A stretch of 64,000 nucleotides of DNA from Myxococcota bacterium (GCA_036337945.1 JAYZDF010000063.1:26560-90559); one strand, 5' to 3'. Positions 4,525-24,413 are shown, counted from the first letter of the stretch. The notes: a model not told the origin generated them from the sequence alone. Program-made: numbers and translations.

Positions 4525-7242
4525 TTATCGCACGATCATGAGAATGTCATCATCATCAATCATATCGCCATCATAGTCGGAGTTGTCTTCCCAAACCATG
4601 ATGAGCTGCGTACCATCCACGGCCATGCTTGGCTCAATGGAAATTCCCTGATTGACAGAGTTCATACCGATGTCACTGATTGATGCGTACGGTGAGAACA
4701 TAGAGCCATTCCAAGTTCTCATATAAATATCGAGGTCGGTTCCTGCGCCGTTGATATCACCCGCATCCTCCCAACTTGCGTGGACGTTTCCAAGAGAATC
4801 AATGGCGACATCAGCATTGGTGCTCCTTCCGTCATTGATGTCGTCGCTCAAAAGGATCAGCGAGCCTCGGCCAGCTGGGGTTTGAGGGACAAAGAAGTTG
4901 GCCATGAAGACATCGATGTCAGTACCGTTATTAATTACGTTACCAGAACCGTGCCAGGTAATGTAGAGAAGCCCTCGTGAATCAGCTGGGTCAGCGGCAA
5001 TTCTCGGACGATAGACATTATCGAAACCGTTTTCTTCAGAGATAAGAACGATAGGTCCCCATGTGCAGCCACCTGCCATGTTGGGTGTAGAGCCGCGGTA
5101 ATAAATATCACGGTTCATATCGGTATCCGACATATCGATTTGCCCGTCATCTTGCCAGACGACATGCGGGCAGTTGTCTGGTGTAACCGCGATTCTCGGA
5201 CGGACAGAAACGCCATCTAAACCAGGAAGTGCATCACTGATTAGAGTTGGCTGGTTGAACCCAGCAGAACCACCGCTGGCGTAATAGATATCATAGTCTG
5301 TATCTCCGTCACCGTCGAGGTCACCATTATCTTGCCAGACCACGTGAGCGATGCCTCGGCCGTCGACTGCGACATCGGGATAAATGGAACGATAATCTTG
5401 TTCGTCAGGGCCTGAACCTGCGCCCATAGATGATTGAGATACCAGTAAAGCATTCGTGCCGAGAGACTGCCCATCGTGGTTTCGGTAGTAGATATCTGAC
5501 TCCACGTCGGTGTCTTGATCCAGTGCACCATCATCCTGCCAAACGATATGAAGCCCACCGTTTGACGCTGGTGATACGCTGACATTTTCGGAGTTACCGT
5601 CAAGAACGGGGTTCACAAAATTTGAAACTGTTTCGATGACTGACATCGCAGAACCTGTTCCGTAGAGACGAAGATAGATATCGCGGTCTGTGCCTTCTTC
5701 CGCTCGCTCTACGTTGTCACGCCAAACAACCCCGATTGCGCCATTCGTCGTGACGGCTACTGCAGGACGGTTACTACTTGCTCGGCTAGGATCACTTCCC
5801 CACTCCATTGGGGGAGGATCGTCAGAAACGATACGCGCGAGGTTTGCGACCTCAACGATCATCGTCACTGGGGTCGAGCTGTTCCCCGCGATATCAATCG
5901 CGGTGATGGTGAGTACATGACTTCCATCAGCAACCTGAGTTGTGTCCCAGGCGACAGAGAATGTGGAAGTGTCGGCAAGCGGGATACTTGTCAACGCTTG
6001 ACCATCGACGGCGACGTCAATCGCAGCCACGCCATTCATATTCATATCGGTTGTATTGTCGGTCGCTTCTCCTTCAATGAGAGCAAGGCCGGTCAGTGTG
6101 TCTCCTGCCATGGGCGACAAAATTGTGAGCGCCGGCATCGTGGTGTCTAGCGTAACTGTTGCAACGATGGGATTGCCGGAGGTTCTTCCGCAGAAATCGC
6201 GGGCGTCAATCTGAATAAAGTTCTGGCCTGCGCTGAGAGTGTAAGAAAACATAAAAGTTGTTTCCGCATTCTCCATGACGACTTCATCGTCGTTGACGAG
6301 AATCGCAGAGTTCGCCTCTTTTGTACCGCTGAGCATCAGGTCTGGATTCGACGTGTATGAACCCGGAAGCATAGCTGCTGGAATTTCTGGTTGCGATGGC
6401 GCTGTAGAATCATATTCAACTTCAACCGTGTGTGGAAGACTGATGTTTGTTCCGATTTGTCCAACAAACTCGAGAGTATTTTTTCCTTCATTGAGAGCTA
6501 CAGTGTGTGTCCACGTTGTTTCGTCACCGGCTTCGATTATGAGCGTGTCATTGAGGAGAACAGCTACTCCGGGTGCTCGTTTTCCGGTGATGACTTGAGA
6601 GTCGTCGCAGGTGGGTGACATTGGGTCATCGACGCTCAAGCCGATACCGCTGTCGTCTTGAAAGATATCGAGCTCGACAACTTCGCTTGCACGACATGAA
6701 TCACGTGCCTCGATACGAACTGTATTTGGTCCTGGCATGAGCATGACCTGAGCCGTCCACATTGTGGACTCATCAGGTGGTACAGCAACCATCCCGTCGA
6801 TTGATATTCCAGCACCTGCTTCTTTTTCACCTGAGATGGTGAACATTCTTTCCATAACAACCGCAGGAATCATTCCCGTGACCGTTGGTTTGGCGGGTTG
6901 TGTCAGATCTAGAGTCGTGTTCTTCCGAATGGAGTCACTTTCTTGACCCGTTGCACTTTTAGCAACGATCGTCAGCGTGTTTGTTCCTTCCATCATTTCG
7001 ACCGAAGCATTCCAGGCTGCCTTTTCGTCGAGGGGAACGACTTCCACTCCGTTGATCCAGATGGCAGTAGAACTCTGCTTGGTACCCGATATCGGTGCCG
7101 GTGAAGCGCACACTGTTTCAGCGAGGTCGGCGGTTGGTTTTTCTGGTTTGTCTGTGACGCTAGAGTCCGTTGTTTCTTCGCACGCGAAGCACAATGCGGC
7201 TGCTAAGATCGAGTAAAGTCGAAGGGAATTCGTATGAATCAT
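4525..7242 (-). CDS. secreted (lipo)protein with N-terminal Ig-like/Big-type domains and a C-terminal 7-bladed beta-propeller built from W-x-D...D-x-D-x-DIYYR repeats
   Basis: Signal peptide with Cys (AALCFAC). Seven repeats of about 45-50 aa, for example VVWRDN..GTDRDIYLR, IVWQDDG..DVESDIYYR, VVWQDNG..DTDYDIYYA, VVWQDDG..DMNRDIYYR, ASWEDAG..GTDLDIYMR. Confidence 0.7.
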   Translation of the reverse strand: MIHTNSLRLYSILAAALCFACEETTDSSVTDKPEKPTADLAETVCASPAPISGTKQSSTAIWINGVEVVPLDEKAAWNASVEMMEGTNTLTIVAKSATGQESDSIRKNTTLDLTQPAKPTVTGMIPAVVMERMFTISGEKEAGAGISIDGMVAVPPDESTMWTAQVMLMPGPNTVRIEARDSCRASEVVELDIFQDDSGIGLSVDDPMSPTCDDSQVITGKRAPGVAVLLNDTLIIEAGDETTWTHTVALNEGKNTLEFVGQIGTNISLPHTVEVEYDSTAPSQPEIPAAMLPGSYTSNPDLMLSGTKEANSAILVNDDEVVMENAETTFMFSYTLSAGQNFIQIDARDFCGRTSGNPIVATVTLDTTMPALTILSPMAGDTLTGLALIEGEATDNTTDMNMNGVAAIDVAVDGQALTSIPLADTSTFSVAWDTTQVADGSHVLTITAIDIAGNSSTPVTMIVEVANLARIVSDDPPPMEWGSDPSRASSNRPAVAVTTNGAIGVVWRDNVERAEEGTDRDIYLRLYGTGSAMSVIETVSNFVNPVLDGNSENVSVSPASNGGLHIVWQDDGALDQDTDVESDIYYRNHDGQSLGTNALLVSQSSMGAGSGPDEQDYRSIYPDVAVDGRGIAHVVWQDNGDLDGDGDTDYDIYYASGGSAGFNQPTLISDALPGLDGVSVRPRIAVTPDNCPHVVWQDDGQIDMSDTDMNRDIYYRGSTPNMAGGCTWGPIVLISEENGFDNVYRPRIAADPADSRGLLYITWHGSGNVINNGTDIDVFMANFFVPQTPAGRGSLILLSDDINDGRSTNADVAIDSLGNVHASWEDAGDINGAGTDLDIYMRTWNGSMFSPYASISDIGMNSVNQGISIEPSMAVDGTQLIMVWEDNSDYDGDMIDDDDILMIVR

Positions 7243-11330: not shown

Positions 11331-14300
11331 TTAGGGCTTGAGTTCAAGCAAATAGGCCGCGCCGCAAAAATTTTGGTCACGGGCGGCGTCGAGCGCTCCG
11401 ACCCCCAAATAAGTAGCGCCAGAAATTTGAGCACTGGATAGGGTGTGGCCCGGTCGTCCGCCCGGGTAATTTGTTTGTCCGATAAAACTGGCGACTGGAA
11501 ATGGATTAAGGCCGACGCCATAAATGAACTCATACATCTGAATATCGCCCGCCAAAGACGTTCCCCCGTAATCACCGTAGGGCACACCAACAGCAAGTCC
11601 GACTCGGCCTTGCCCATCGAAATTCGGAATAAATGTCACCCCATTGCCGAAGTTGCCTGACCCTGTCGAACCCGGCAGAGAGAGAACCAGCTGATTGCTT
11701 GGGTCGCTGAAACCATAAAAGGTAGCAGTGGACGCATTTTCAATTGGTTCTGGCGTCAAAGTCTGAAGGTACGAACCCAAAATAATCCATACTGCGCCAA
11801 CAACATTGCCGTTCAGTCTGTACTCGTTTCCGCCGACTGCCAGATCAGGAAGTCCGTCAGAGTCGATATCGAGACCACCGCTGAGACTTGTACCCGCTCT
11901 TGAGAATCGCGACCGTGACTCGAGCGTCAAGAGCTGAGGAGTCAGATAGTCACAGTTGATTCCGGCTCCGAAGACAATCCGTATCGTTCCTTGATTCGTG
12001 CTTCCGTTATCCTCCTCACGGCTGCCAACGACAAATTCATCGCATCCATCGCGATTAAGGTCCCCGAGTTTTCCTAGTGAATGCCCGATTCGACTATTTG
12101 GGCTGATGCCGTACATCGTTGGTTGAACATCACAAATGATTTGAGTCCGTCCATTATTGCTCGGTGCGCGTCCATGAAGGATGGTAAAGCCACCAGAATT
12201 ATTTATACCGGGTGCATCCCAATTAACGCCTGAAACAATAACATCATCAAAGCCGTCGCCGTTCACGTCTACGTCGCCGACGACAGCGTACATTTCAGAG
12301 CTACGGTGAGGTCCGTAATAAATGTAAGCCGGTTGTGACGATATATTCCCATTGGAGTCACCGCGAAATATAAATACCGCGCCTGAGTTATTCTTGCTGG
12401 GCCCGCAAGTTGTTCCGATGACATCATAGGTACTGTTGTTAAAAGACGAAGGTTGATCATCGTAGCGAGCGACGACCGCAAAGTCATTGGTCCCGTCGTT
12501 ATCAAAGTCTCCGACGCGGCTAACGCTGAAACCGAAATGGTCACCGCCCGAATGTCGTCTAAATCGGTCGAGTTCTACATCTGGTTGTGTACCAAAGCCG
12601 TTTGCTGTTCCGAAATAAAGGGCGGCACCGCCGGCGTTGATGCCTACCGAACGAATATCTCTGGCGTGAGCGCCGACCAAAAAGTCAGTAATGTTGTCAC
12701 CATTCACATCGCCAACAAAATCTACTGATATGCCGAATTGATCACCCCCTGCGGAGCCGGGGAGCCCGAGAAGTTCTAACGGTTTGCTTTCGTCTCCAGG
12801 TACGAAAAACGGTGCACCTTCGTTAATGCCGTAGACATCAGAGTATGCAGAAAGTGCAACCAGGTCATTACGCCCGTCGCGGTCTAAATCTCCAACGACG
12901 TCAAAGAACATACCAAAGCGATTTTCGGAAGTAGGCCCAACGATGACTCGCATGGGCGTTGTTGTCGCTGTATCCGGTAATATTCCATCTTCGCCTTCGA
13001 AAATGAATATTGTCCCGGCGTTGTTGCGGCCACCAGGAATTTCGTCGCTATGGTTGCCGACAATTAGGTCGTTTCTCGTGTCACCATCGTAATCTGACAC
13101 GCGCACATACCATCCAGCTTCGTCATTATTATTCGCACCGAACCAGGACAGAGTAGCTGTTTCAACGGCAGATAGATTGAGCATTGGTGTGTCAGGCAAG
13201 TCGAGTTCTTGATAAATCCTGATAGCGCCTCGATTTGTTCCACCTGCGGCGGCATTTTCAGCCCGGAACTGCGTAACGACGAGTTCGTCTGCGAGGTCTC
13301 CGTCGAGGTCTCCAGCCGCCATGAAACGAGCAAACTGGCTCGATCTTTCGGGAGCGACAGTGGCTGCATACCCGCGAACTGGAAATGGCGTCAGCCCGCC
13401 AGGTCCGCTACCATCGGCAGCTCGGCCTCGATAAATAAACAACAGTCCATCATCGGTATTGGTGGGGCCAGCGTCATAAACAAAAGTACCCGCAGCAAGG
13501 TCACAAACCGCATCTCCGTTGAAGTCACCGGCGGCTAAAGCGCGCCCAAGTTGGAGGCTTGTCCGACCCGCGAATGTTCCGTCGCCCAGCGGCATATCCC
13601 CCCAAAGTGAAACGTCCGGTGTATCAGAAAATCCATCAGATCCACCCATATGGATATAAACAGCGCCTTGGTCGTTACTTCTTGTTCGTCGTAGGCGATC
13701 TTCGGCTAAAATTGCACCGATCGCGATGTCCATGTATCCATCGGCGTTGAAGTCACAAGCTTCGACAGCGGTTCCTGCGTAGTCAAATGCGTTAGTTCCG
13801 CCGATGGCTCGAGTAGGTTCTGCACTAAAGAAAGAATTCGGTTGTCCTGAAAAAATATAGACACCACCGTTATCGCGAGCGCCAATATCAGCGCGCATGG
13901 CACCGACGATCAGGTCGAGTAAGCCGTCTCCATCCAGGTCGGCAATGGTCATAGAACGCCCAAACTGCGCGCTTCGACCGCCTTCACTGAGGACGCGAAC
14001 CGGTGTTGGATCCAATCCTGTGGCAGTCCCTTGATAAATAAGCACAGCGCCTGAGTCCGTCGCATTATAGTTTGTTTCTGCCCAAGCCACGGCGACATCG
14101 TCAAACCCGTCTTGATTGATGTCTCCGGTTCGAACGACCGCGCCTGAATTAATGTATGAGCCAGAACGAGTTGTAGAACTGGTGAGAGAAGGGACAGCGA
14201 AAGCTGAAATTTGACTCGTTTGAGATGTGTAACGGTCTGTGACAGAAAGCAGTGTGTCACCTTCTGCTAATGCTTTGATTGTACCGTTCGCGTAAGAGAA

Positions 14301-15149
14301 GTTTGTATTACTCGGTGTAATATCAAAAAATCCGCTGCCTCCATTTATTTGAACTACGTATTCTGTTTCCACGGGCATATATACAGATGAGGGAACAGGT
14401 TGGAGAACGGCATTTTCTTGTAGCTCGATCAATGCATCTGCTGCGTCGCCTGTGAGAATATCTTCAATTCTAATTCTTTCCTGGCCAGCGCTTCCATTGC
14501 CCATGTAAAGACCGCTTGCCGAAATCGTACCAGTGCTTGCACCATTCGGCCGTGGCAAAATTCTGTAACTAAATTGCCCCGAGCCATCAAAGACTTCAAA
14601 TTGAACCTGTCCGTTTGTATCGATGGTCGCATTTTGAGGACGGACCTCAATTCGCGAAAGTACATTGACGGTTGCAGTAGCCGTTCCTGTGCAACCTAGG
14701 TCGGTGACGTGAATGGTGTCCGTTGTTTGTTCGACCGTGCCGGAAAGATAGGCTCCTGTCTCAATATTGAGTACTGCTCCGGAATTATTTTCTGCGAGTT
14801 CGAAAACATGAGCTCCGGTTCCACCACTCGCTTGGAAGTTGATGAGTCCCAAAGGTGTCGCTGATTTTGCTTCCGGTTGAACGGTGAGCGCAGGAGAGCA
14901 GGGTCCGATTTTCGCGCCACTGTCCGGTTGAATTGAGCCGGTATCCGGGCGAGCGAAACCTGCATCGGGCTCTGTGGGTGCGGCATCGACGGTTGCCTCT
15001 ACATCAGGGATGACAACTGCGGATGCATCCGGCCCGAGAGGGATCGGCGGTAGATCTACGGTTTGTTCGCATCCCAGGGCTACAGAGAATGCGACCGAGG
15101 GTATCAGCCATTTGCCTTGAGGCTTAGTAAAACTAGCGATGGAGGTCAT
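11331..15149 (-). CDS. giant FG-GAP (integrin-alpha/VCBS-type) repeat lipoprotein
   Basis: Lipobox VAFSVALGC. More than 15 FG-GAP-like repeats (DINQDGFDDVAVAW, DLDGDGLLDLIVGA, DFNADGYMDIAIGA, GDFNGDAVCDLAAG, DVNGDGFDDVIVSG and others). The track start at 15242 is an upstream alternative; I prefer MTSIASF at 15149. Confidence 0.75.
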   Translation of the reverse strand: MTSIASFTKPQGKWLIPSVAFSVALGCEQTVDLPPIPLGPDASAVVIPDVEATVDAAPTEPDAGFARPDTGSIQPDSGAKIGPCSPALTVQPEAKSATPLGLINFQASGGTGAHVFELAENNSGAVLNIETGAYLSGTVEQTTDTIHVTDLGCTGTATATVNVLSRIEVRPQNATIDTNGQVQFEVFDGSGQFSYRILPRPNGASTGTISASGLYMGNGSAGQERIRIEDILTGDAADALIELQENAVLQPVPSSVYMPVETEYVVQINGGSGFFDITPSNTNFSYANGTIKALAEGDTLLSVTDRYTSQTSQISAFAVPSLTSSTTRSGSYINSGAVVRTGDINQDGFDDVAVAWAETNYNATDSGAVLIYQGTATGLDPTPVRVLSEGGRSAQFGRSMTIADLDGDGLLDLIVGAMRADIGARDNGGVYIFSGQPNSFFSAEPTRAIGGTNAFDYAGTAVEACDFNADGYMDIAIGAILAEDRLRRTRSNDQGAVYIHMGGSDGFSDTPDVSLWGDMPLGDGTFAGRTSLQLGRALAAGDFNGDAVCDLAAGTFVYDAGPTNTDDGLLFIYRGRAADGSGPGGLTPFPVRGYAATVAPERSSQFARFMAAGDLDGDLADELVVTQFRAENAAAGGTNRGAIRIYQELDLPDTPMLNLSAVETATLSWFGANNNDEAGWYVRVSDYDGDTRNDLIVGNHSDEIPGGRNNAGTIFIFEGEDGILPDTATTTPMRVIVGPTSENRFGMFFDVVGDLDRDGRNDLVALSAYSDVYGINEGAPFFVPGDESKPLELLGLPGSAGGDQFGISVDFVGDVNGDNITDFLVGAHARDIRSVGINAGGAALYFGTANGFGTQPDVELDRFRRHSGGDHFGFSVSRVGDFDNDGTNDFAVVARYDDQPSSFNNSTYDVIGTTCGPSKNNSGAVFIFRGDSNGNISSQPAYIYYGPHRSSEMYAVVGDVDVNGDGFDDVIVSGVNWDAPGINNSGGFTILHGRAPSNNGRTQIICDVQPTMYGISPNSRIGHSLGKLGDLNRDGCDEFVVGSREEDNGSTNQGTIRIVFGAGINCDYLTPQLLTLESRSRFSRAGTSLSGGLDIDSDGLPDLAVGGNEYRLNGNVVGAVWIILGSYLQTLTPEPIENASTATFYGFSDPSNQLVLSLPGSTGSGNFGNGVTFIPNFDGQGRVGLAVGVPYGDYGGTSLAGDIQMYEFIYGVGLNPFPVASFIGQTNYPGGRPGHTLSSAQISGATYLGVGALDAARDQNFCGAAYLLELKP

Positions 15150-15298
15150 AAGGTATCCCTTTGGTACCACGATTACTGGGGTGGAAGAAAATTGGGACCG
15201 TCGAACTTTTGTTGGGGTAATAGGAGTTGCTGTATATCGCACAAGATCGTCGGATAAAGGAAAAGCCGCGTTGATAAGGATTAGGAATACGCGCTATT

Positions 15299-16828
15299 TT
15301 GAAACCACTCGTGAAAAAACAGATTTTTCCATCGTTCATCGCTATATCGTTGCTCACGTTTGGTTGTATCGCCGAACCCGTCGAAATGCCTCCAACCGCT
15401 ATGCCCGCCTTAGATGGAGGCATTCGTGTCAGGCCTCCTGTTCAACCAGACCCATTTCCAGTTGACCTTCGCAGCGTTGACTTTGGAGTAAGTGACCAGA
15501 TCATTCCTCTTCTCAGCGGAGGAATTGTCACCCGAACTGGAACAGTTGTCGAATATCGCGCTAATCTCGGACAGTCTCCTGTTGTACTCAATCATGCTTT
15601 TTCAGCGTTGCTTGACGCGGAAACTTTGCCTTGGGGCTCCTTGCTCCTCTGGACTGGTTCGGAGTTTTTTATCTGGGAAGATGACCAAGTAGTCCGTTCT
15701 CCTATATCTGAGAAGATTCCCGTCACGAAAAGTGGCGAATTGCTCATCGCTCCCGGACCGAGTGGAAAGAAAGATGTTTGGATTACCACAGACAGCGCCG
15801 TATTTTTATGGAGAGAGGAACAAGCGATCCAGCTTGACTTTGGTCCTCTTGCTGCAGGGCCGAAGCATCTTCGCTTCGGGGCGCCATGGAACACCTCTGC
15901 TGCGACCTGGTTGGGGACATCAAACGGCGTGGATGCCTTGGTCGAAACCGGCACGGTGACGACGCGCTATCAAAGCTTGGTGGCGTATCCAGTAGACAAC
16001 CTGGTGATTGATTTTGAAGGGACAGTTTGGGTGCTTACATCTGGTCGTTTGTTTAGCCGAGACTGGGACAACAACTGGGTTGAACACCTTGGCTTAGGCA
16101 CGGTTTTGGCGATCGCAGGCCACCGGGACTCCAAGCAACTTTGGCTGATGACAAAAAGGATGGGGCTTTGGTCTCATCGCGGCGGTAATTTTCAGCCCGC
16201 AGAATGGTCAGACAATGGTCTTAGCTTAGATTCGCTCGACCTCGAAAAGTTAGTTTTTAGTGGTTTACGTGAGGGTCAATTGATTGTGGGTGACCACTTG
16301 AATCGTTACGTAGTGACTCCTGGTCGATTTTTAAATCTTGAGGGTCTCGAGGACGGGAGCCTTCTTACGTCAACGGTGAGTTTTGATGTAAGGGTTTCCG
16401 AGCCACAGACCGTGGATGAAATTCAGGTATTTCTGGACGGTCAGCCATTGAGTCCGGCTTCATCACCTTCGAATTTTTCAATAAGCCCTGCGGGACTGGC
16501 AGACGGCTCGCACGAGATAAGTGTAAACGTTAGTTATTTAGACGGAGCCCCTGATTCACGGTTGGTGGTTCGTTTCTCTGTGTATAGTGAAAACCCACCA
16601 ACATGGGTCAACGACATCTTTCCTATTTTTCAAAATGATTGTGAAGTTTGTCATGGGCTAAGGGGAAGTGCCCGTTTGCTAAGTACGCCTGACTTGTGGC
16701 GTAGTGATATAGATATAATTTTGGACGTTGTTCGGAAAGGCACTATGCCTCTCCCACCGAGTCCTCCGCTTTCCGAGGGAGAGATCATTCAGATCGAAGG
16801 ATGGAAAGCGGCGGGTTATTTGGAGTGA
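15299..16828 (+). CDS. lipoprotein with a novel N-terminal ~430-aa region and a C-terminal PSCyt1 (Planctomycete cytochrome C, CxxCH) domain
   Basis: Lipobox LLTFGC. C-terminus IFPIFQNDCEVCHGLRGSARLLS...GTMPLPP...LSEGEIIQIEGWKAAG matches the PSCyt1 pattern. TTG start with AGGA upstream; an alternative GTG lies 12 nt downstream. Confidence 0.65.
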   Translation: MKPLVKKQIFPSFIAISLLTFGCIAEPVEMPPTAMPALDGGIRVRPPVQPDPFPVDLRSVDFGVSDQIIPLLSGGIVTRTGTVVEYRANLGQSPVVLNHAFSALLDAETLPWGSLLLWTGSEFFIWEDDQVVRSPISEKIPVTKSGELLIAPGPSGKKDVWITTDSAVFLWREEQAIQLDFGPLAAGPKHLRFGAPWNTSAATWLGTSNGVDALVETGTVTTRYQSLVAYPVDNLVIDFEGTVWVLTSGRLFSRDWDNNWVEHLGLGTVLAIAGHRDSKQLWLMTKRMGLWSHRGGNFQPAEWSDNGLSLDSLDLEKLVFSGLREGQLIVGDHLNRYVVTPGRFLNLEGLEDGSLLTSTVSFDVRVSEPQTVDEIQVFLDGQPLSPASSPSNFSISPAGLADGSHEISVNVSYLDGAPDSRLVVRFSVYSENPPTWVNDIFPIFQNDCEVCHGLRGSARLLSTPDLWRSDIDIILDVVRKGTMPLPPSPPLSEGEIIQIEGWKAAGYLE

Positions 16829-16833
16829 AAAAA

Positions 16834-18435
16834 ATGAGAATTTTATTCGCCGCTACTTTGTTAGCCACGCTGGTCGGGTCTGCCCAAGCAAGTGTTCCTA
16901 ACGAAGCATTGATGTGCAGGCCTGACGAGCCGCGCATGGACAAATTCGCTTATCTAAGAGCGCTGAGTTTGGATATTCGTGGAGATGTACCGACCTACGA
17001 TGAGTATGCTGAACTTGCAGCGAACCACTCCGATGTCCCCGATGCATGGATAGAGAACTGGTTGAGTAGTGAAGCTTTTGTAGAGCGCGCCGTTCGTGCG
17101 CATCGCTCTTTAGTATGGAACAACCTCGATGCAGTTCGGCTTGGTAACTATCGACAGAACTTCCGCCGGATTCGAGCCAGCGACAATAGTTTCGTATACT
17201 ACCGAGACCGCCAAGCGGCGGTATACAGACATGTCAATCGCCCTCCTTGTGATGTTGACCGGCCAGTAGAGTATGATTCAGCCGGGCGAATTAGAACCTG
17301 GGCAAAAGACTTCATCCGTAATGGAGAAACATATAGCGCGCAGGTTGAAGGTTACGTCATGGTGTCTCCTTATTGGGCGCCCAACACTTCGATAAAAGTT
17401 TGCGCATTTGACGCTCAAGTTGGGGACGTCTCCGCCTCTGGTTCAGACTGCCGAACGAACGGCGGATTCGGAGATGCCGGTTGCGGTTGTGGTGAAAATC
17501 TAAAATTGTGCCGGTACGGCAGCAATGTTTATTCGGAGCGAGCATCTCTTGAGCGCGATGTCGAACTTCGCATTGCAGACGTCATTCGCAACAATCGTCC
17601 GTACACAGAGATGTTTACAAGTCGTAAAGCGTATGTAAACGGGCCTCTTGTTCACTTCTTGAAACATCATATCGGATTCACGTCGGGTACCAGCTTGGAG
17701 CCGCTTCCGTTTGACGAGGCGAACCTCCCCGATATCCCGTTTACGGACTACAATTACTACGAAATCGATTTACCCGCCGAACATGCCGGAATCTTGACGA
17801 GCCCTAGCTTTCTGCTGCGCTTCCAAACAAACCGAGCGCGTGCGAATCGATTCTTTGACGCGTTTATGTGTTCTCCGCCATCTCCTCCTTCGGGCGGGTT
17901 GCCTGCCCAGGATCCAAACGCACGCATCGAGCCTGACCTGCAGTTGAGAGACGGCTGCAAATATTGCCACGCGCTCCTAGAGCCAGCGGCTGCGCACTGG
18001 GGTCGTTGGACCGAACGTGGTTCTGGCTTTCTTAGTATGGAGCAATTTCCTCCGACTCGCGCAGATTGCGAAGAGTGCGGACGAACTGGACAAGCATGCA
18101 GTCAAGAATGCCGCTTGCACTACGTAACCCAAGCTTTCACACCGGAAGAGGACCAATACATCGGTATGCTCAATGCCTATCAGTGGATGAAACCTTCTCA
18201 CCAAAGAAACGTTGAGTTAGGTCCAAAGTTCCTAGTTCTTACTTCCATCGTTGATGCCCGTTTCCCAGACTGCACCGCGAAGCGAGCTCTGGAGTCCCTA
18301 CTAGGACGCGAGACGAATGCTGCGGAGCAAGAATGGATTAAGGACCTTTCTAAGGATTTCCTAAACTCCGGATACCGATATCGCGATCTGGTGAAAGCCA
18401 TTGTGACCAGTGATATCTACAGGAGGATTCGATAA
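16834..18435 (+). CDS. periplasmic PSCyt2/PSD1 (DUF1549/DUF1553) family protein
   Basis: Own signal peptide MRILFAATLLATLVGSAQA. DUF1549-like motif YLRALSLDIRGDVPTYDEY...AWIENWL. Downstream there is a second CxxCH (DGCKYCHALLEP). The track ORF starts at 16801, upstream of the signal peptide. Confidence 0.65.
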   Translation: MRILFAATLLATLVGSAQASVPNEALMCRPDEPRMDKFAYLRALSLDIRGDVPTYDEYAELAANHSDVPDAWIENWLSSEAFVERAVRAHRSLVWNNLDAVRLGNYRQNFRRIRASDNSFVYYRDRQAAVYRHVNRPPCDVDRPVEYDSAGRIRTWAKDFIRNGETYSAQVEGYVMVSPYWAPNTSIKVCAFDAQVGDVSASGSDCRTNGGFGDAGCGCGENLKLCRYGSNVYSERASLERDVELRIADVIRNNRPYTEMFTSRKAYVNGPLVHFLKHHIGFTSGTSLEPLPFDEANLPDIPFTDYNYYEIDLPAEHAGILTSPSFLLRFQTNRARANRFFDAFMCSPPSPPSGGLPAQDPNARIEPDLQLRDGCKYCHALLEPAAAHWGRWTERGSGFLSMEQFPPTRADCEECGRTGQACSQECRLHYVTQAFTPEEDQYIGMLNAYQWMKPSHQRNVELGPKFLVLTSIVDARFPDCTAKRALESLLGRETNAAEQEWIKDLSKDFLNSGYRYRDLVKAIVTSDIYRRIR

Positions 18436-19217
18436 TGAAGATGCTTCGAATAGCAGCAAGCTCGCTTCTGAGTTTGAGTCTTGTTTCGTTTGGCTGTGAC
18501 AGCGCAAAGCAAGTCTACAACCCGCCCGTAGAGCAAACAGCGCCAACTGTGCTTGAGGTCGATGGTGACCCTTTCCTCGGGAAGAAAGCCATTGAACAGG
18601 GCACACTTGGCGAGACCACCTCGCATCACAATGCGTTTTCGCAAGTTTCACTTATGCCGAAACCACCGGTCGAAGAGGCTCCATATCGAAACCGAAGACG
18701 TATGGACTTGGATCAATTAACTGCTTCTCTCAAAACTGTCAGTGACGGCCTAGAGTGGACCGTAAACGGTCAAAACCAGTTCGACGTGTTGGCATCGACT
18801 TTGGGTAAGCCTGACTTCAATACCATCACGAGCGAAGACTTGGACCCCTCTGCGATGTTTCTGAAGTTTTTGAATGATGCATCACGCGATATTTGTTTCC
18901 AAATGGTGGAGCGTGATCTTCAGCGAACAGTTTCGACTCGTGTGCTATTCAAGCATGCGACACCTGAAATGACGATGGCGAACAATGCAAACGCTATCGA
19001 GATAAATTTGGTTTATTTGCTCAAGCGCTTCCATGGCATGTCCTCGGTTGCGTCTTGTGATGACTGCGACGAAGACACGCCAAATGCTCTTGGTCCCGAA
19101 TTACAACAATGGGTCTGGCTCTACCAGGCAGCTGAGCATGTTTCATCTAGTCCGGTGGATGCATGGCGAACGGTTTGCGTCGCTTTGATCAATCATCCGG
19201 ATTTCTACATGTATTAG
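18435..19217 (+). CDS. hypothetical lipoprotein
   Basis: Lipobox LVSFGC. TAATG stop/start overlap with the upstream gene indicates translational coupling. Confidence 0.55.
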   Translation: MKMLRIAASSLLSLSLVSFGCDSAKQVYNPPVEQTAPTVLEVDGDPFLGKKAIEQGTLGETTSHHNAFSQVSLMPKPPVEEAPYRNRRRMDLDQLTASLKTVSDGLEWTVNGQNQFDVLASTLGKPDFNTITSEDLDPSAMFLKFLNDASRDICFQMVERDLQRTVSTRVLFKHATPEMTMANNANAIEINLVYLLKRFHGMSSVASCDDCDEDTPNALGPELQQWVWLYQAAEHVSSSPVDAWRTVCVALINHPDFYMY

Positions 19218-19229
19218 GAGGCAACTGAG

Positions 19230-20603
19230 ATGACTTACACAAAAATAAATCGACGTCGTTTTCTTCAAAGCAGCCTGGCAACGGGCGCAGGATTAGGTGT
19301 TTTTGGCGGCTCCGGCGTGCTTGGCGCTTTGGCCCAACGCGCACCGGAAGTAGACAAAGACATCCATTATGTCTTTGCGTACTTTTCAGGTGGCTGGGAC
19401 ATCTTACTAGGCTTGGATCCAAGAGACCCTGCACAATTTAACTCTGGGAATATGAGCCAAACCAGAATTCAACCTGGTTATGAACTACTCAACGGTTCTG
19501 ATGGACAATTGATTCGGACAAGCTCCGGACTCGAATTTGGACCGTATATTGGCATGTTGGCCCAGCATCACGACAAGCTCGCCGTTGTGCGTGGCATGTC
19601 CATGGAGACGCTGACTCATGAAGCCGGACGTCGGCGTTTTATCACCGGAAAACCGCCGTCTGGTTTGCTGGCTCGGGGTTCGTCAATGGCGACGGTATTT
19701 GCGGCAATGCATGGTGCAGAACAGCCGATACCTAATCTTTCGGTTAGGGTAGAGTCGTACAATATTGACCAGCCAAACTATGCGACTGCTTTACGCACTC
19801 AAGGGGTTCCAGACCTCATTCGTGCGCTAAGGCCCTCTGACCCCGCGCTCTCGCGTCGTCAGAACGTACAGCTTGATCAATTGTTGTCGACCGTTGCGCA
19901 GTGCCCAACGACATTGAAGTCTAAGTCGCTGATCAAAGCTGAGGAAGCTCGAAAGCAAGCTCTGCAAATGACGACAACTCAGTTGGACCGACTGTTCGAC
20001 TTTCAGGCGAACAATAGTGAGATGGAGCAACTTCGTTCTGAGTTTGCCATACCGGGTGGTTCAGCGGGCTTGCAGTCACCGGAAGCGCAAACCGCGATGG
20101 CGGCTCAGGCCATCATGAATGGGATAAGCCGTACCGTGTCTATTCAGGCCTCTGGCGGCTTGGATACTCACTTCAACGATTGGGAAAACGATCAAGGCCC
20201 CCGACAACAGCAGGGCTTTGATGCAATTTCGCGTTTGATCACGAAACTGGAATCTAGTCAGTACAAAGACACCGGTGATTCTTGGCTAGACCACACGGTC
20301 ATTGTTGGTTTCTCTGAGTTCTCGAGAACTCCGATGCTCAACGCACGTGGTGGCCGAGATCACTCCCTTACGGGCGCGTGCTTTTTGGCAGGTGCTGGAA
20401 TCCAAGGCGGAGTAGCGGTAGGCGCATCTTCCAACCGAGGAATGGAACCCCAGGCGATCAATCTTTCGACTGGTTCCGTCGACCTCGGCGGTGAAGTGCC
20501 TAAGCCTGAGCATGTACTTCAGACTCTGATGTTCAATGCTGGACACACCGGCGACGAAGCTGACCTACGCGTATACCCGATTGAAGCAATTCGGCGGGGC
20601 TAA
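19230..20603 (+). CDS. DUF1501 family protein (sulfatase/alkaline-phosphatase-like fold) with a twin-arginine signal
   Basis: Tat motif NRRRFLQSSLATGAGLG. Its length and its position beside a DUF1549/DUF1553 protein are typical of the pairing seen in Planctomycetes and Verrucomicrobia. Confidence 0.75.
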   Translation: MTYTKINRRRFLQSSLATGAGLGVFGGSGVLGALAQRAPEVDKDIHYVFAYFSGGWDILLGLDPRDPAQFNSGNMSQTRIQPGYELLNGSDGQLIRTSSGLEFGPYIGMLAQHHDKLAVVRGMSMETLTHEAGRRRFITGKPPSGLLARGSSMATVFAAMHGAEQPIPNLSVRVESYNIDQPNYATALRTQGVPDLIRALRPSDPALSRRQNVQLDQLLSTVAQCPTTLKSKSLIKAEEARKQALQMTTTQLDRLFDFQANNSEMEQLRSEFAIPGGSAGLQSPEAQTAMAAQAIMNGISRTVSIQASGGLDTHFNDWENDQGPRQQQGFDAISRLITKLESSQYKDTGDSWLDHTVIVGFSEFSRTPMLNARGGRDHSLTGACFLAGAGIQGGVAVGASSNRGMEPQAINLSTGSVDLGGEVPKPEHVLQTLMFNAGHTGDEADLRVYPIEAIRRG

Positions 20604-20694
20604 CCCGCTTTTTCTCGGGCGCAACCGCGCTGTTCGTAATTCCTCACAACATAATTTCTGTCGAACCGACAACTTGGTATAGCTTGGTCTGCAG

Positions 20695-22125
20695 GTGGGG
20701 ATTGCTATGGATGGTGTTTTATCTGGCGAAGAATTAGCGGGTGTCGCAGCGGATTTCGCAAGTGAGCTGGACCTTGAGGAACAATTGAAGCCTTATCGAG
20801 AGCTTTATTGGTCCAAACCAGCCGAGCAGCGTCCTACTCTTTTTCTTGAAGACCTGACCGGCATACCTTTTCTATCGAAAATTGCGGGCATCGAAGCCTA
20901 TCAGCATCGCGCGCGAGTTCGTGCGGGAGACGGTGATCTGTTTGCAGCCGTCGGCCCGAAAACTGAAGGCTACGAGGAATACTGTCGAGACGTTCTTCTC
21001 CTTGGCTCGACGGAGTTAGTTCACGCGGAGCCTGTTGACGGTCTCATGGCCGTTGCGCGAGCTTGTATGAGTGGTCAGGCTTTCGAACGATTGCTCGAAC
21101 GAGCTCGAGAAGCGGGGGGATTTAGCGTACACCCCTACATGAGTATTGATGATGTTTGGCAATTGGCTCGACTCATCAAAGAGGAAACAGGTGTCCCTGT
21201 TTCCGTATGCGGCCCGCCCACGCCTGTCTTATGGATTGCCAACGATAAGAGCTTACTGTCGGAACTTGCAGTTCGTACTGCCGGTTCAGACATCATTAGC
21301 GAGTCTCGCCTTAGCACGATTCCCGAAGAAATGGCCGAAGCCTTAGTTCATCTCGCGCAGAGTCACGAACGCGTAGCACTTAAGCGCACGCGATGCGCTT
21401 CAGCTATGGGAAATAAAGTCTTCGATTCGAAGACCCTTCTCGCTTGGACGAAAGAGCAGTTGCACGAGCAAGTGGTTCGTTTTCTCACTGAAACAGAATG
21501 GGAAGAGGATGAGCCGGTGATAACTGTTGTCTGGGAAAAAGCGGTTTGTTCACCATCGACGCAATTATTTCTCCCACCGATAGGCGAGGGCGACGTCATA
21601 TTTAATGGTGTGTTCGAGCAAATTTTAGAAGGAGAAGAACAAATGTTTTTAGGAAGTCGACCGTCTACCTTACCTGCGGCCGTCGAAGCAAAACTCAAGC
21701 GTTCTTCTTTAGCTATAGCTGGAGCGCTACAGCATCTTGGATATACGGGTGTATGTTCTTTTGATTTCCTTGTTCTTGGGAATCTCTGTGGTGACTTTGA
21801 GGTACGGATAACAGAATGTAACGGTCGTTGGGGAGGAACGAGTACCCCAATGAATCTTGTGTCGCGCCTTATTCAAGGTCCCCGACCTTGTTATCGCGCA
21901 CAAGACTTTATTCATGAATCATTGGTGGGCATATCTTTTGACGAATTTCTGCAACGGGTCGGAAGTAAAGCCTTCAATGCGACAACTCAAGAAGGTAAAT
22001 TCGTATTTTACAATACGGGCTGCCTCGCAAAATCGGGGAAGTTTGACGTGATTGCTTTCGCAGATACCCCAGAAGAAACAGACGCTGCAATTTTAGAAGA
22101 GTTACCCAAGCTTTTGGGGCTCTAA
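20695..22125 (+). CDS. ATP-grasp fold protein (pre-ATP-grasp plus ATP-grasp, amidoligase-like)
   Basis: C-terminal half has CSFDFLVLGNLCGDFEVRITECNGRWGG, an ATP-grasp-type E-x-N metal-binding strand. No close match to a named enzyme. Confidence 0.4.
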   Translation: MGIAMDGVLSGEELAGVAADFASELDLEEQLKPYRELYWSKPAEQRPTLFLEDLTGIPFLSKIAGIEAYQHRARVRAGDGDLFAAVGPKTEGYEEYCRDVLLLGSTELVHAEPVDGLMAVARACMSGQAFERLLERAREAGGFSVHPYMSIDDVWQLARLIKEETGVPVSVCGPPTPVLWIANDKSLLSELAVRTAGSDIISESRLSTIPEEMAEALVHLAQSHERVALKRTRCASAMGNKVFDSKTLLAWTKEQLHEQVVRFLTETEWEEDEPVITVVWEKAVCSPSTQLFLPPIGEGDVIFNGVFEQILEGEEQMFLGSRPSTLPAAVEAKLKRSSLAIAGALQHLGYTGVCSFDFLVLGNLCGDFEVRITECNGRWGGTSTPMNLVSRLIQGPRPCYRAQDFIHESLVGISFDEFLQRVGSKAFNATTQEGKFVFYNTGCLAKSGKFDVIAFADTPEETDAAILEELPKLLGL

Positions 22126-22134
22126 TCTGAGCGC

Positions 22135-22869
22135 TTACTGCTTTAGATATTCATCAAGATAGCCACTCGTTTGAACGGCCTCAATAATAATTTTGGCAAC
22201 CCGATCTAGATCGCCCAGCAATCTATGACTCACCTCAAATTCTACGCTTGCGTATCGACCGTCTAAGAAGCGATTTCTAAAATTGGTGGTAATGCCGTCA
22301 TTGAGCCCGCTGTACGGCTCGTTTACTCGACAATCCAGTCCGCTTTCGTTGATTGCTTTGTGAATCAACTTTGTGATTGGACCGTCACCGATATGAGATG
22401 GGTCCACGAGAAGTCCGATATCCATTTCTCTGACTTGTCCGGGGTACTCATGTGTGAAGCTATGAACGCCTAGGTGGAGGCACTTGTGACCAGAGTCGAA
22501 AACACTGTGGATGTGCTTGAGCACTTCCGACCAATAGGGAGAATGGTAGGTCTCTAGGCGTTTTTTTCGGTCTTCATCTGATAGTTGAGAATTTCCAGGC
22601 ACCGAGACACCAAATGCGGTCGATGGAACGCTTTCGAGATTTTCTAGACTGCGATTTAGGTCCGCGACCAGTCGGCTGTACTGCCCTACGATTATGGGAG
22701 CTTGGACTGCGGCGGCCAATTTTCTACCAACATATTCTGCGCCAGGGTCCCAAGCGACATGAGACTCCAGGATCTCGTCGGACAGACCAAGGTTCCCCAA
22801 TTCCGGCGGAATCGCATTACTTGCATGTTCTATACTGACGACGGGCTGCCACATAGCTGACGCAAGCAT
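22135..22869 (-). CDS. N-formylglutamate amidohydrolase (FGase) family hydrolase
   Basis: VVSIEHASNAIPPELG near the N-terminus and HLGVHSFTHEYP...MDIGLLVD, as in the FGase/HutG-like zinc-hydrolase family. About 244 aa. Confidence 0.55.
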   Translation of the reverse strand: MLASAMWQPVVSIEHASNAIPPELGNLGLSDEILESHVAWDPGAEYVGRKLAAAVQAPIIVGQYSRLVADLNRSLENLESVPSTAFGVSVPGNSQLSDEDRKKRLETYHSPYWSEVLKHIHSVFDSGHKCLHLGVHSFTHEYPGQVREMDIGLLVDPSHIGDGPITKLIHKAINESGLDCRVNEPYSGLNDGITTNFRNRFLDGRYASVEFEVSHRLLGDLDRVAKIIIEAVQTSGYLDEYLKQ

Positions 22870-22973: not shown

Positions 22974-24413
22974 GTGACGACAAAACTTTCGCAGTCCAAT
23001 CAATTTGAGCTTCAGATTTCTCCTAAACTGCTCATCGGGTTAGTCGTAAGCGCCGCATTGTGTGGCGGCCTGGCTATTTTTCAATGGATGGAGTTAATCG
23101 TAGCGCAGCGCGGAGGCTCGCTCTCCTGCAGTATAAATGAGACCTTCAACTGCGCTGCGGTGTGGGAAGCACCCTTTGCAAAAGCAATTCATGCAATGAC
23201 AAAAGTTCCTGTCGCAGGTTGGGGATTAATATGGAGTGTTGGAGCACTTTGGTCTGCTCTTCGCCTAGTGTCATCTGCTCTGAACCGACAGACGGGCGAA
23301 CATCAGGTACTTGCCGTTCGCTTGTTTGCGATCGCCGGCATCTTCAGTTCGCTCGTCCTTGGAGGCGTAAGTTTTGCAGCAGGAGCGATTTGCATTACCT
23401 GTATCGCAACGTATTGGTTGGTCCTGATTTTCTCCTCTTGTGCGTATCTCATCAAGTCACCGATCAAGCCTTCACAGTCTGCTCTTTTTGTCTCAGAGTT
23501 TCCGAAAGTGATCCTCGCGGTTGGTTGCGCGTATCTTGTCTGTTTCTATCCGGGTACGAAGACACCGCAAAAGGCGGCTTTGGCTCTGGAGCAAGTTGTA
23601 ACTACTTCAGATAAATCATCACCGACTCCAGCTCAAATGCAGGCCGAAGAATCAAAAAAGGCCAAGTTACCACCCCAAGACGAACCATCTCCCCCCCAAA
23701 GTTTAGAGGAACTCATCAGTCAATTCCCGCCTGCGAGCAAGCAGGCTCTCAGCGACGCAATCACTCGAATTCGCGCTCAGAAAAAACCGGAAGGTAAAAC
23801 TTGGCCAATTCGTTTTTATAAGGGCAATGAAAACGCCGGTGCGAAGTTTGTTGAGTTCACAGATATCAAATGTGGTCATTGCGCTCGCCTCGCTCTTGAA
23901 TTCAAAGAGCTTGAAAAAATTATTACCCCCTCCAAATTTCACGTCGAACCCAGACAATTTCCTCTAGATTACGAGTGTAACAAAGCTGTTTCTCCGGGGA
24001 TGAGTGATGGAACCGGTGTTCGCTGTATGGCTGCAAAGGCTCTCATTTGTTTAGAAACGAAGGATGAATATTGGTCTGTTCAGCTTGAAATGTTCAAGAT
24101 AGGACCATCATTGACCAAAGAGAAGATCGTTGAATTAGCTGCTCCACATTACAAAGGCAGTGATGCACTCAAGTCATGTATTGAATCCGAAGAAACCAAG
24201 AGGAAACTAGAGGACGATATCAAATATGCTATGCAATACGACCTCCACGGGACTCCACTCGTTTTGCTAAATGGCAAAGAGGTCCAGCCGATCGGCGCAT
24301 TATTATTTGCGCTAATGCTTGCAGAAGGAAACTTAGATGCTCCTGCTTTCAAGAGTTTGCCTCCGCCGAGTCCGGCCGCATTTCGCGACCCTCATGAAGG
24401 GCACGCTCATTAA
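22974..24413 (+). CDS. VKOR (vitamin K epoxide reductase family) fused to a DsbA-like thioredoxin domain
   Basis: Loop Cys pair LSCSINETFNC. Intramembrane CITC active site in a TM helix. C-terminal thioredoxin-fold CGHC motif (FTDIKCGHCARL). Confidence 0.7.
   Translation: MTTKLSQSNQFELQISPKLLIGLVVSAALCGGLAIFQWMELIVAQRGGSLSCSINETFNCAAVWEAPFAKAIHAMTKVPVAGWGLIWSVGALWSALRLVSSALNRQTGEHQVLAVRLFAIAGIFSSLVLGGVSFAAGAICITCIATYWLVLIFSSCAYLIKSPIKPSQSALFVSEFPKVILAVGCAYLVCFYPGTKTPQKAALALEQVVTTSDKSSPTPAQMQAEESKKAKLPPQDEPSPPQSLEELISQFPPASKQALSDAITRIRAQKKPEGKTWPIRFYKGNENAGAKFVEFTDIKCGHCARLALEFKELEKIITPSKFHVEPRQFPLDYECNKAVSPGMSDGTGVRCMAAKALICLETKDEYWSVQLEMFKIGPSLTKEKIVELAAPHYKGSDALKSCIESEETKRKLEDDIKYAMQYDLHGTPLVLLNGKEVQPIGALLFALMLAEGNLDAPAFKSLPPPSPAAFRDPHEGHAH

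Follow-up and report, generated by a model that had tools for sequence, protein, structure and literature searches.

Few gene families have expanded as much in Planctomycetes and Verrucomicrobia as those for PSCyt- and PSD-domain proteins that stand beside DUF1501 or DUF1552 genes. In these systems, PSCyt2 pairs exclusively with PSD1 and adjoins DUF1501; PSCyt3 pairs exclusively with PSD4, often together with PSD2, PSD3 or PSD5, and adjoins DUF1552, an arrangement referred to as group III (He et al. 2017, PMC5615132 Text S1). He et al. proposed a carbohydrate-related role while stating that the function is unknown (PMC5615132), and Kamneva (2012) proposed membrane-associated electron transport while stating that the function is unclear (PMC3542564). 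Four-gene clusters of Planctomycetes-Verrucomicrobia-Chlamydiae (PVC) bacteria already hold a separate cytochrome c and propeller protein (Kamneva 2012, PMC3542564). Here, we report a related module in a stretch of 64,000 nucleotides (nt) from a Myxococcota bacterium (GCA_036337945.1 JAYZDF010000063.1:26560-90559), hereafter the window, in which four co-directional plus-strand open reading frames (ORFs), A to D, lie within positions 15299-20603, with a fifth gene, FG, divergent upstream.

As judged by sequence comparison, the four genes are conserved together in hundreds of uncultured Myxococcota, and domain content marks the module as compact and distantly related to the PSCyt/PSD + DUF1501/DUF1552 pairs known from Planctomycetes and Verrucomicrobia. 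An initial annotation of the window had proposed this kinship, which our analysis supports. On balance, and by a modest preference, we favor reading the module as a conserved Myxococcota cell-envelope unit composed of the divergent FG gene and an A-B-C-D operon, whose products would form a periplasmic complex tethered to the membrane, in which D would be the enzyme. We found no published description of the Myxococcota module in the literature. It overturns nothing, and offers a cleaner, better-resolved version of a long-standing functional puzzle.

Results

Gene layout and regulatory signals

The components of the module and the signals around them are as follows.

11331-15149, minus strand: FG, 1272 residues from MTSIAS, a giant FG-GAP repeat lipoprotein, divergent from A.
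15150-15298, 149 bp: FG-A divergent intergenic region, presumed to be a shared promoter region.
15299-16828, plus strand: A, 509 residues, TTG start.
16834-18435, plus strand: B, 533 residues, ATG start.
18435-19217, plus strand: C, 260 residues.
19230-20603, plus strand: D, 457 residues.
20593-20609, plus strand: hairpin of terminator type (GGCGGG-GCTAA-CCCGCT, then TTTTCT) that takes in the D stop codon; recognized by pattern only.

The stop codon of A (TGA, 16826-16828) is separated from B by 5 nt, and the two genes are in different frames and do not overlap. A mechanical ORF start for B at 16801 would overlap A; the true start is almost certainly the ATG at 16834, which has GGAG 8 nt upstream. 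B and C share the sequence TAATG at 18433-18437, in which the stop codon TAA of B overlaps the ATG of C. The gap between C and D is 12 nt, and a Shine-Dalgarno sequence, AGGAGG, precedes both genes. The initial annotation described these genes as overlapping or abutting; B and C do overlap, A and B do not. The four genes, their export signals and two CxxCH motifs that it had noted are all present in the sequence, as is its order of a small lipoprotein and then a DUF1501 protein with a twin-arginine translocation (Tat) signal downstream of B. Export signals were judged throughout by motif and by conservation among orthologues.

The GC content of the operon equals that of its flanks. A single sigma-70-like match falls in the FG-A intergenic region (15271-15300, plus strand), and the counts of promoter-like and terminator-like patterns in the region were not above chance as given by shuffled expectation. 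Among these pattern matches the hairpin at the D stop codon is suggestive, its position alone being of interest.

Conservation and distribution of the module

A profile scan with one genome per species found relatives of B in 270 genomes. All 80 loci returned by the scan come from metagenome-assembled genomes (MAGs) of marine and lake samples, and their host labels are nearly all Myxococcota, Bradymonadia, Polyangia, Sandaracinaceae, Myxococcales or 'Deltaproteobacteria'. When the ORFs of 87 loci were searched with phmmer, A was found in 76, C in 86, D in 85 and FG in 66. The typical gene order is FG on the minus strand followed by A, B, C and D on the plus strand, and B-C overlaps of 1 or 4 nt recur among the loci. 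An FG orthologue lies divergent upstream of the operon in 61-66 loci, so FG belongs to the module, a component that the initial annotation had missed. The listed loci show one or two module copies per genome. Orthologues of A were recovered by synteny, a word-indexed homologue search having returned just six relatives of this protein.

All-versus-all clustering of the locus ORFs revealed no other neighbor conserved in more than nine loci, cytochrome maturation genes, sulfatase maturases, transporters and regulators included. Long antisense ORFs over B and D, present in 70-73 loci (e.g. L003:7515-8549 and L003:10258-10689, both minus strand), are not genes; they arise as artefacts where GC content is high and the coding sequence is conserved.

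Averaged over alignment columns, identity reaches 55% in D, 50-57% in B and 44% in C, and only 17% in A, the fastest-evolving component. The gradient, D > B > C >> A, is in keeping with a catalytic core that is conserved and a quickly changing A turned toward the substrate or the environment. In six loci (L054, L058, L065, L067, L070 and L077), FG is directly divergent from B-C-D and A is missing. Five of these are second copies in genomes whose other copy has A, and B retains CxxCH in all six. In a further locus, a 2267-residue protein with OmpA, TSP3 and Lamin-tail domains (L022:13-6816, plus strand) lies co-directionally upstream of B-C-D and replaces FG and A; in another, the upstream gene is sigma-54 (rpoN; L084:4678-6423, minus strand). 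This variability points to B-C-D as the core, with A and FG as frequent partners.

Protein D

D starts with MTYTKINRRRFLQ and carries the twin-arginine motif NRRRFLQ (R8-R9-R10-F-L). Twin arginines are found in essentially all 75 D orthologues, and the TAT_signal hidden Markov model (HMM) scores 18 bits against a cut-off of 22.7. DUF1501 (PF07394) matches residues 72-409 with 99.4 bits (E 3.2e-28, cut-off 27), which together with the RRRF motif confirms D as a Tat-signal DUF1501 protein. The DUF1552/HXXSHH family (PF07586) covers residues 100-183 only and stays below its cut-off (27.5 bits against 30). An NCBI MAG protein with the name 'DUF1501 domain-containing protein [Myxococcota bacterium]' matches D at 100% identity. 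A search against PDB sequences gave no sequence-level match, and NCBIfam holds no model for A, B, C or D.

The AlphaFold2 (AF2) model of D is confident (mean predicted local distance difference test score, pLDDT, 87.7), with the Tat peptide (residues 1-40) disordered. Foldseek returned 23 PDB matches at E <= 1e-3, with probabilities of 0.9-1.0 for those listed. The listed matches are sulfatases, alkaline phosphatase, LtaS and phospholipase C, all of the alkaline-phosphatase superfamily; MCR-1, EptA-type and phosphonate monoester hydrolase entries match at weaker E-values. This confident model thus predicts an alkaline-phosphatase-superfamily fold for D. Residues D57, T127, H130, D312, H314, E363 and R376-D377-H378 are invariant, and T129 and H428 nearly so. 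In the predicted secondary structure, strand 46-52 is closely followed by D57; T127 and T129 stand where helix 130-139 starts, beyond strand 117-124; D312 and H314 follow strand 302-308, and D377 and H378 precede strand 381-388. We take these positions to be the places of the metal ligands and nucleophile in the superfamily, as in alkaline phosphatase and nucleotide pyrophosphatase/phosphodiesterase (NPP).

Protein A

The N-terminus of A, MKPLVKKQIFPSFIAISLLTFGC, is a lipoprotein-type signal with the lipobox LTFGC (Cys23). A lipobox-like Cys was found in 52 of 64 A orthologues by a strict regular expression, and most of the others match loosely. Three regions follow on the plus strand.

Residues ~60-345: propeller-like repeat region with a recurring motif.
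Residues 352-409, nt 16352-16525: Big_7 immunoglobulin-like (Ig) domain (Pfam, 28.6 bits against a cut-off of 24.1).
Residues ~430-509, nt 16586-16825: class I monohaem cytochrome c domain, with CEVCH at residues 448-452 (nt 16640-16654) and Met483-Pro484.

The motif of the repeat region, W-h-x-T-x-x-G-h, occurs at residues 115, 160, 203 and 243, with looser copies following. Reg_prop is weakly matched by two A orthologues and Vgb_lyase by one, and the region may be a divergent beta-propeller. One orthologue (L003) does not have the Ig-domain region. The 430-residue N-terminal part, previously described as novel, is therefore not wholly so, as it contains a known Big_7 domain and propeller-like repeats.

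Of 71 orthologues, 69 have CxxCH in the C-terminal domain and two have CxxxCH, and the two Cys, the His and the Met-Pro are invariant. Cytochrome_CBB3 (PF13442) matches 30 of 30 orthologues (best E 1.4e-7 in the domain set and 1.5e-9 at full length), with the domain of the window's A at 20.7 bits, below the cut-off of 27, and PccH is matched by 26 of 30. Furthermore, the domain profile matches the solved CcoP, QcrC, PccH, Kuenenia c-552 and c6 cytochromes (best E 8.7e-7), the one meaningful result when A, B, C and D were compared with PDB sequences by sequence and by profile. By contrast, PSCyt1 (PF07635), the label given to this domain in the initial annotation, has no match in the window's A at E <= 0.1 and is matched at E <= 1 by just 4 of the 30 orthologous domains (best E 0.032). 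By HMM comparison, the A C-terminus is clearly a generic class I monohaem cytochrome c domain and not PSCyt1. What stands of the earlier description of A is the lipoprotein signal and the DCEVCHG haem motif near the C-terminus; the PSCyt1 assignment does not.

Protein C

C has the lipobox VSFGC (Cys21), and a lipobox-like Cys is found in at least 64 of 80 orthologues by the strict expression, most of the others matching more loosely. A variable, often Pro/Glu-rich linker follows the lipobox and leads to a conserved C-terminal domain of about 175 residues with two invariant Cys.

18687-19214, plus strand: conserved domain of C, with the motifs RRRMDxDQL, TLGKPDY, LFxKFLxDAxRxxC, LLxRFHG and WRxVCVxLxxHPDFYxY.

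Searches of C against Pfam, NCBIfam and PDB gave no match. With phmmer, C recovered 532 representatives at 50% clustering, the best 150 of which are without exception separate proteins, 160-380 residues long. We rejected the idea that C is a detached piece or duplicate of B, as hhalign shows no relation between them. An RRLT..EY-like motif and a C-terminal SP.FLYR-like motif suggested a resemblance to PSD3/PSD5; a Pfam scan of 30 orthologues gave a single PSD5 match (E 0.11), and we do not claim this kinship. An insert in the window's C, SSVASCDDCDEDTPNALG (about residues 186-205, nt 18990-19050), with two extra Cys in an acidic stretch, is shared with the closest relative and is absent from all other orthologues.

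Protein B

B has a type I signal peptide, MRILFAATLLATLVGSAQA, with SVPNE after the cleavage site (translation from the ATG at 16834), and NCBI names its orthologues 'DUF1585 domain-containing protein'. Its own signal peptide and CKYCH, the second CxxCH of the locus, agree with its earlier description as a separate protein. Domain recurrence was scored in 26 orthologues at E <= 1, and the following features, all on the plus strand, were found.

Residues 32-97: PSCyt2-like N-terminal helices (PF07583, DUF1549), profile 18-84 of 209, in 26 of 26 orthologues; 22.5 bits, below the cut-off of 29.8.
Residues ~100-230: Cys-rich beta insert, from the AF2 model.
Residues 236-274: PSD4-like stretch (PF07631, DUF1592), profile 86-124 of 128, in 16 of 26; sub-threshold (13.8 bits against 23.3 in the window's B; best orthologue E 7e-4).
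Residues 318-387: PSCyt3-like stretch (PF07627, DUF1588), profile 2-83 of 98, in 11 of 26; sub-threshold (12.4 bits against 27 in the window's B; best orthologue E 0.003); holds the CxxCH.
Residues 375-379, nt 17956-17970: CKYCH, within the invariant GCKYCHALLEP.
Residues 475-528, nt 18256-18417: PSD2 (PF07624, DUF1585), profile 20-73 of 74, in 26 of 26; 29.9 bits against 25.8, best orthologue E 8.5e-9.
Residues 497-531: PSD1 match (PF07587, DUF1553), profile 49-83 of 244, in 25 of 26; 16.3-16.4 bits against a cut-off of 28.5, overlapping the PSD2 match.

PSD2 is the sole family above threshold in B. The assignment of B as a PSCyt2-PSD1 protein did not hold, because both families are sub-threshold and partial. 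The sub-threshold order PSD4-PSCyt3, followed by PSD2, is colinear with group III proteins.

The AF2 model of B, built from 119 sequences, has a pLDDT of 93.2 and a predicted template modelling score of 0.89. It shows N-terminal helices, the beta-rich Cys-rich insert, a helical core and a C-terminal helical bundle, with a lower-confidence Pro-rich loop before the CxxCH helix (residues 376-389).

The B profile at 475-522 (the PSD2 helices) faintly resembles the phycobilisome linker ApcE (PDB 6kgx_YH and 7y4l_63, E ~0.15), a resemblance that is probably compositional. A similar resemblance has been mentioned for DUF1800 proteins in a 2026 paper (PMC12981691), and the match would fit one helical motif common to PSD2, PSD1 and DUF1800.

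FG and other genes of the window

FG has the lipobox VALGC and matches the Pfam families FG-GAP (7e-47) and FG-GAP_3 (1e-27). A lipobox-like Cys is present in 41 of 54 FG orthologues by the strict expression, most of the others matching more loosely, and none of 59 FG orthologues contains CxxCH. The other large ORFs of the window are unrelated to the module. Those of note are as follows; Lnt, the two Ig-type proteins and the second FG-GAP_3 protein are, like the module, related to the envelope.

2720-4102, minus strand: apolipoprotein N-acyltransferase (Lnt).
4525-7242, minus strand: 904-residue Big_7/Big_13 Ig-domain protein.
20695-22125, plus strand: 476-residue protein with a sub-threshold Pre-ATP-grasp match; not conserved beside the module elsewhere.
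22135-22869, minus strand: N-formylglutamate amidohydrolase (FGase) family gene; not conserved beside the module elsewhere.
22974-24413, plus strand: VKOR-thioredoxin/DsbA fusion, an enzyme that forms disulfides in the periplasm; it begins 2.4 kb downstream of D.
38442-41711, plus strand: 1089-residue ASH/HYDIN-type Ig-repeat protein (DUF1573).
59044-60561, minus strand: second, smaller FG-GAP_3 protein.

The VKOR-DsbA fusion is suggestive given the invariant Cys residues of B, and is syntenic only in the close relatives L001 and L002.

Discussion

Our analysis describes a five-gene module whose components carry distinct envelope addresses. These addresses, together with the tight coupling of the genes and the conservation gradient, suggest a membrane-tethered periplasmic complex. 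In the reading that we favor, A-B-C-D would be co-transcribed and B-C translationally coupled, as their layout suggests. FG, A and C, with their conserved lipobox motifs, would be exported by the general secretory (Sec) pathway and lipid-anchored; B would pass through Sec unfolded, and D through Tat in folded form. D may be the catalytic subunit, a metalloenzyme of the alkaline-phosphatase superfamily in which D57, T127/T129, D312, H314, D377, H378 and H428 would serve as metal ligands and as Thr/Ser nucleophile positions. Its reaction might be the hydrolysis or transfer of an ester group of phosphoryl or sulfuryl type, with a substrate outside the cytoplasm. By analogy with the PSCyt2/PSD1, PSCyt3/PSD2 and DUF1800 proteins and their DUF1501 or DUF1552 neighbors, B may be an obligatory partner of D, a disulfide-rich helical protein whose invariant GCxxCHxxxEP could hold either a single haem c or a metal. 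C, whose synthesis would keep pace with that of B, may tether the soluble B-D pair to the membrane through its long linker. A and probably FG could be accessory subunits that offer macromolecule-binding surfaces, from the propeller and Ig domains, and the His/Met cytochrome c domain of A would imply a one-electron transfer step in the cycle. As A is missing from some loci, this redox link would be accessory or supplied in trans.

Several points weigh against this reading. For B, Foldseek found no solved fold in PDB at E <= 1, and the family profile found no relative among PDB sequences; there is no conserved distal Met, and the CxxCHxxx[E/D]P context is unlike any solved cytochrome. For D, the Foldseek template modelling scores (TM-scores) are 0.3-0.4 at 8-12% identity, and the mapping of its residues onto the alkaline phosphatase/NPP metal site follows sequence order and predicted secondary structure. 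It is hard to see what a redox partner would do for a hydrolase-type enzyme, and A is absent from at least six loci, so its cytochrome c domain can be required for the core chemistry only if it acts in trans. The physical association of B, C and D is suggested by gene order and overlap only, and the roles of the components are drawn throughout from sequence comparison and models.

A less probable alternative is that the module is hydrolytic or structural and has no core redox role, the CxxCH of B being a disulfide or metal (Zn/Fe/Cu) site and the cytochrome domain of A dispensable. Fifteen Cys are invariant in B, among them CGCG and CxxC...CxxxC clusters of a kind typical of disulfide or metal knots, and neither a Met nor a second axial ligand is identified by conservation; the lack of any match between the B profile and solved cytochromes, the B-C-D cores without A and, despite its restriction to close relatives, the VKOR-DsbA fusion downstream point the same way. 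However, cytochrome c maturation systems recognize CxxCH on proteins exported by Sec, and the His of B is as invariant as both Cys (GCxxCHxxxEP in 78 of 80 orthologues). In addition, a bona fide cytochrome c partner lies directly upstream in about 70 loci, and related Pfam families were named putative cytochromes for their CxxCH motif (PMC3542564).

The initial annotation had instead read the locus as a Planctomycete PSCyt1-PSCyt2-PSD1 protein split into A (PSCyt1) and B (PSCyt2-PSD1), with its DUF1501 partner kept. We consider this improbable. The c-type haem domain of A does have what is presumably a PSCyt1-like layout (W..D[IV].P[IL]....CxxCHG...MPL...W...G), the adjacent DUF1501 fits, and the recurrence of weak PSCyt2 and PSD1 matches among the B orthologues is also in its favor. 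Nevertheless, the HMM finds PSCyt1 in those four orthologues alone and not in the window's A; the PSCyt2 match covers the first third of its profile and leaves the CxxCH region of B outside, and the PSD1 match is 35 residues long and overlaps that of PSD2. The CxxCH of B sits in the PSCyt3-like stretch, after the PSD4-like one and before the above-threshold PSD2, which is the group III signature (PMC5615132). No fused A-B protein occurs among the top 120 listed B homologues or the 87 loci, so that a fused ancestor is an assumption.

It is very unlikely that the module is a surface adhesion or recognition apparatus, in which FG-GAP propellers like those of integrins join an Ig domain and a further propeller, with DUF1501 as a non-catalytic scaffold: FG and A are indeed lipid-anchored, fast-evolving and built of classic binding modules, but D is the most conserved component, keeps invariant Asp, His and Thr at the expected active-site positions of the alkaline-phosphatase superfamily, and is a Tat substrate, which suggests a folded, probably cofactor- or metal-loaded enzyme.

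There is practically no chance that 15299-18435 is one gene split by a sequencing or assembly frameshift near 16826, as the different frames and the short gap of A and B might suggest, since the two are separate ORFs in about 70 independent loci, A ends at a conserved C-terminus (...W..AG[FY][PL]E-stop) in about 70 independent assemblies, the four genes recur at unchanged spacing in two independent assemblies whose B shares 96% identity with that of the window, the best 120 listed B homologues are all stand-alone (476-576 residues), B has its own Shine-Dalgarno sequence and signal peptide, and at least six loci have B without A. Even where B is just 46-50% identical, A still ends 4 nt before it. 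The arrangement in relatives and the start signals of B thus bear out the TGA at 16826 as a true stop, and the cytochrome c protein and the PSD-type protein are genuinely separate, each exported on its own.

If we return to the favored envelope unit and extend it, the module could be a five-component envelope machine, apparently confined to Myxococcota, that couples c-type haem centers (in A, and a single haem in B) to an alkaline-phosphatase-superfamily enzyme, with B as a bridging form of one enzyme family. We regard this extension as rather unlikely. If true, it would mean redox-dependent ester or polymer chemistry without characterized precedent, and PSCyt2/PSD1-DUF1501, PSCyt3/PSD2-DUF1552 and DUF1800-DUF1501 would be one ancient two-subunit enzyme family, for whose function the few copies per genome would offer the simplest entry point. 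Every host found is an uncultured MAG, and native genetics is currently not possible. The Myxococcota version is small and well conserved, with individually exported parts, clear compartment signals and confident models of B and D, and lends itself reasonably well to heterologous expression, to analysis of haem and metals and to reconstitution of the complex.

The closest described relatives share different parts of the module. With PVC group II systems (PSCyt1-PSCyt2-PSD1 + DUF1501; PMC5615132, PMC3542564) it has in common the adjacent Tat-signal DUF1501, a large helical partner with CxxCH, a c-type cytochrome domain in the cluster, and C-terminal helices (F..sGy.yr.LvkaIvtS..Yrr) matched by both PSD1 and PSD2. 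In contrast, a lipoprotein of its own carries the cytochrome c domain of the module, which the HMM does not identify as PSCyt1, B matches PSCyt2 in part and is PSCyt3-like in its CxxCH region, and B has 533 residues against the usual ~1000. The module also has the extra conserved partners C and FG, numbers one or two copies in a genome, as far as the listed loci show, compared with the many paralogues reported in PVC genomes, and is hosted by Myxococcota. Group III systems (PSD3/PSD5/PSD4-PSCyt3-PSD2, that is DUF1587/1595/1592/1588/1585, with DUF1552; PMC5615132 Text S1) share the domain order of the C-terminal 300 residues of B (PSD4-like, PSCyt3-like with the CxxCH, then PSD2, the last alone above threshold), whereas the partner in the module is DUF1501 and not DUF1552, the Pfam scan detected neither PSD3 nor PSD5 in B, and B has a PSCyt2-like N-terminus and a Cys-rich beta insert.

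The PVC four-gene cluster (DUF1501 / PPC-domain secreted / PSCyt1-Big_2-PSCyt2-PSD1 / PSCyt1-WD40; PMC3542564) is likewise a multi-gene module with a separate cytochrome c and beta-propeller protein, Ig domains and a further secreted protein. However, the domain order in A is reversed (propeller, Ig, cytochrome), its propeller is Reg_prop-like or unclassified and not WD40, C and FG come from different families, and B is without a PSCyt1 and Big_2 of its own. The Proteobacterial DUF1800 + DUF1501 pair, found for example beside bacterial chitin synthase genes (PMC5122149), also joins a helical protein with a Tat-signal DUF1501, but DUF1800 was matched by only 1 of 26 B orthologues (E 0.22). With the alkaline-phosphatase superfamily (type I sulfatases, alkaline phosphatase, NPP, LtaS and EptA/MCR-1), D shares the predicted fold, an Asp that follows beta-1, a Thr where the next helix begins, and D-x-H and D-H further along the chain; it differs in its low identity and TM-scores, in the absence of the sulfatase CxPxR motif and in an apparent need for a dedicated partner protein.

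From all of these systems the module is set apart by a domain signature of mixed type, a compact B, a new family in C, FG as a partner, the few copies found and its Myxococcota host. By its profile matches, B mixes two domain types that are reported to be exclusive in PVC bacteria, yet adjoins DUF1501. These mixed pairings break the reported 'exclusive' rule and argue that the 'Planctomycete-specific' systems belong to one superfamily.

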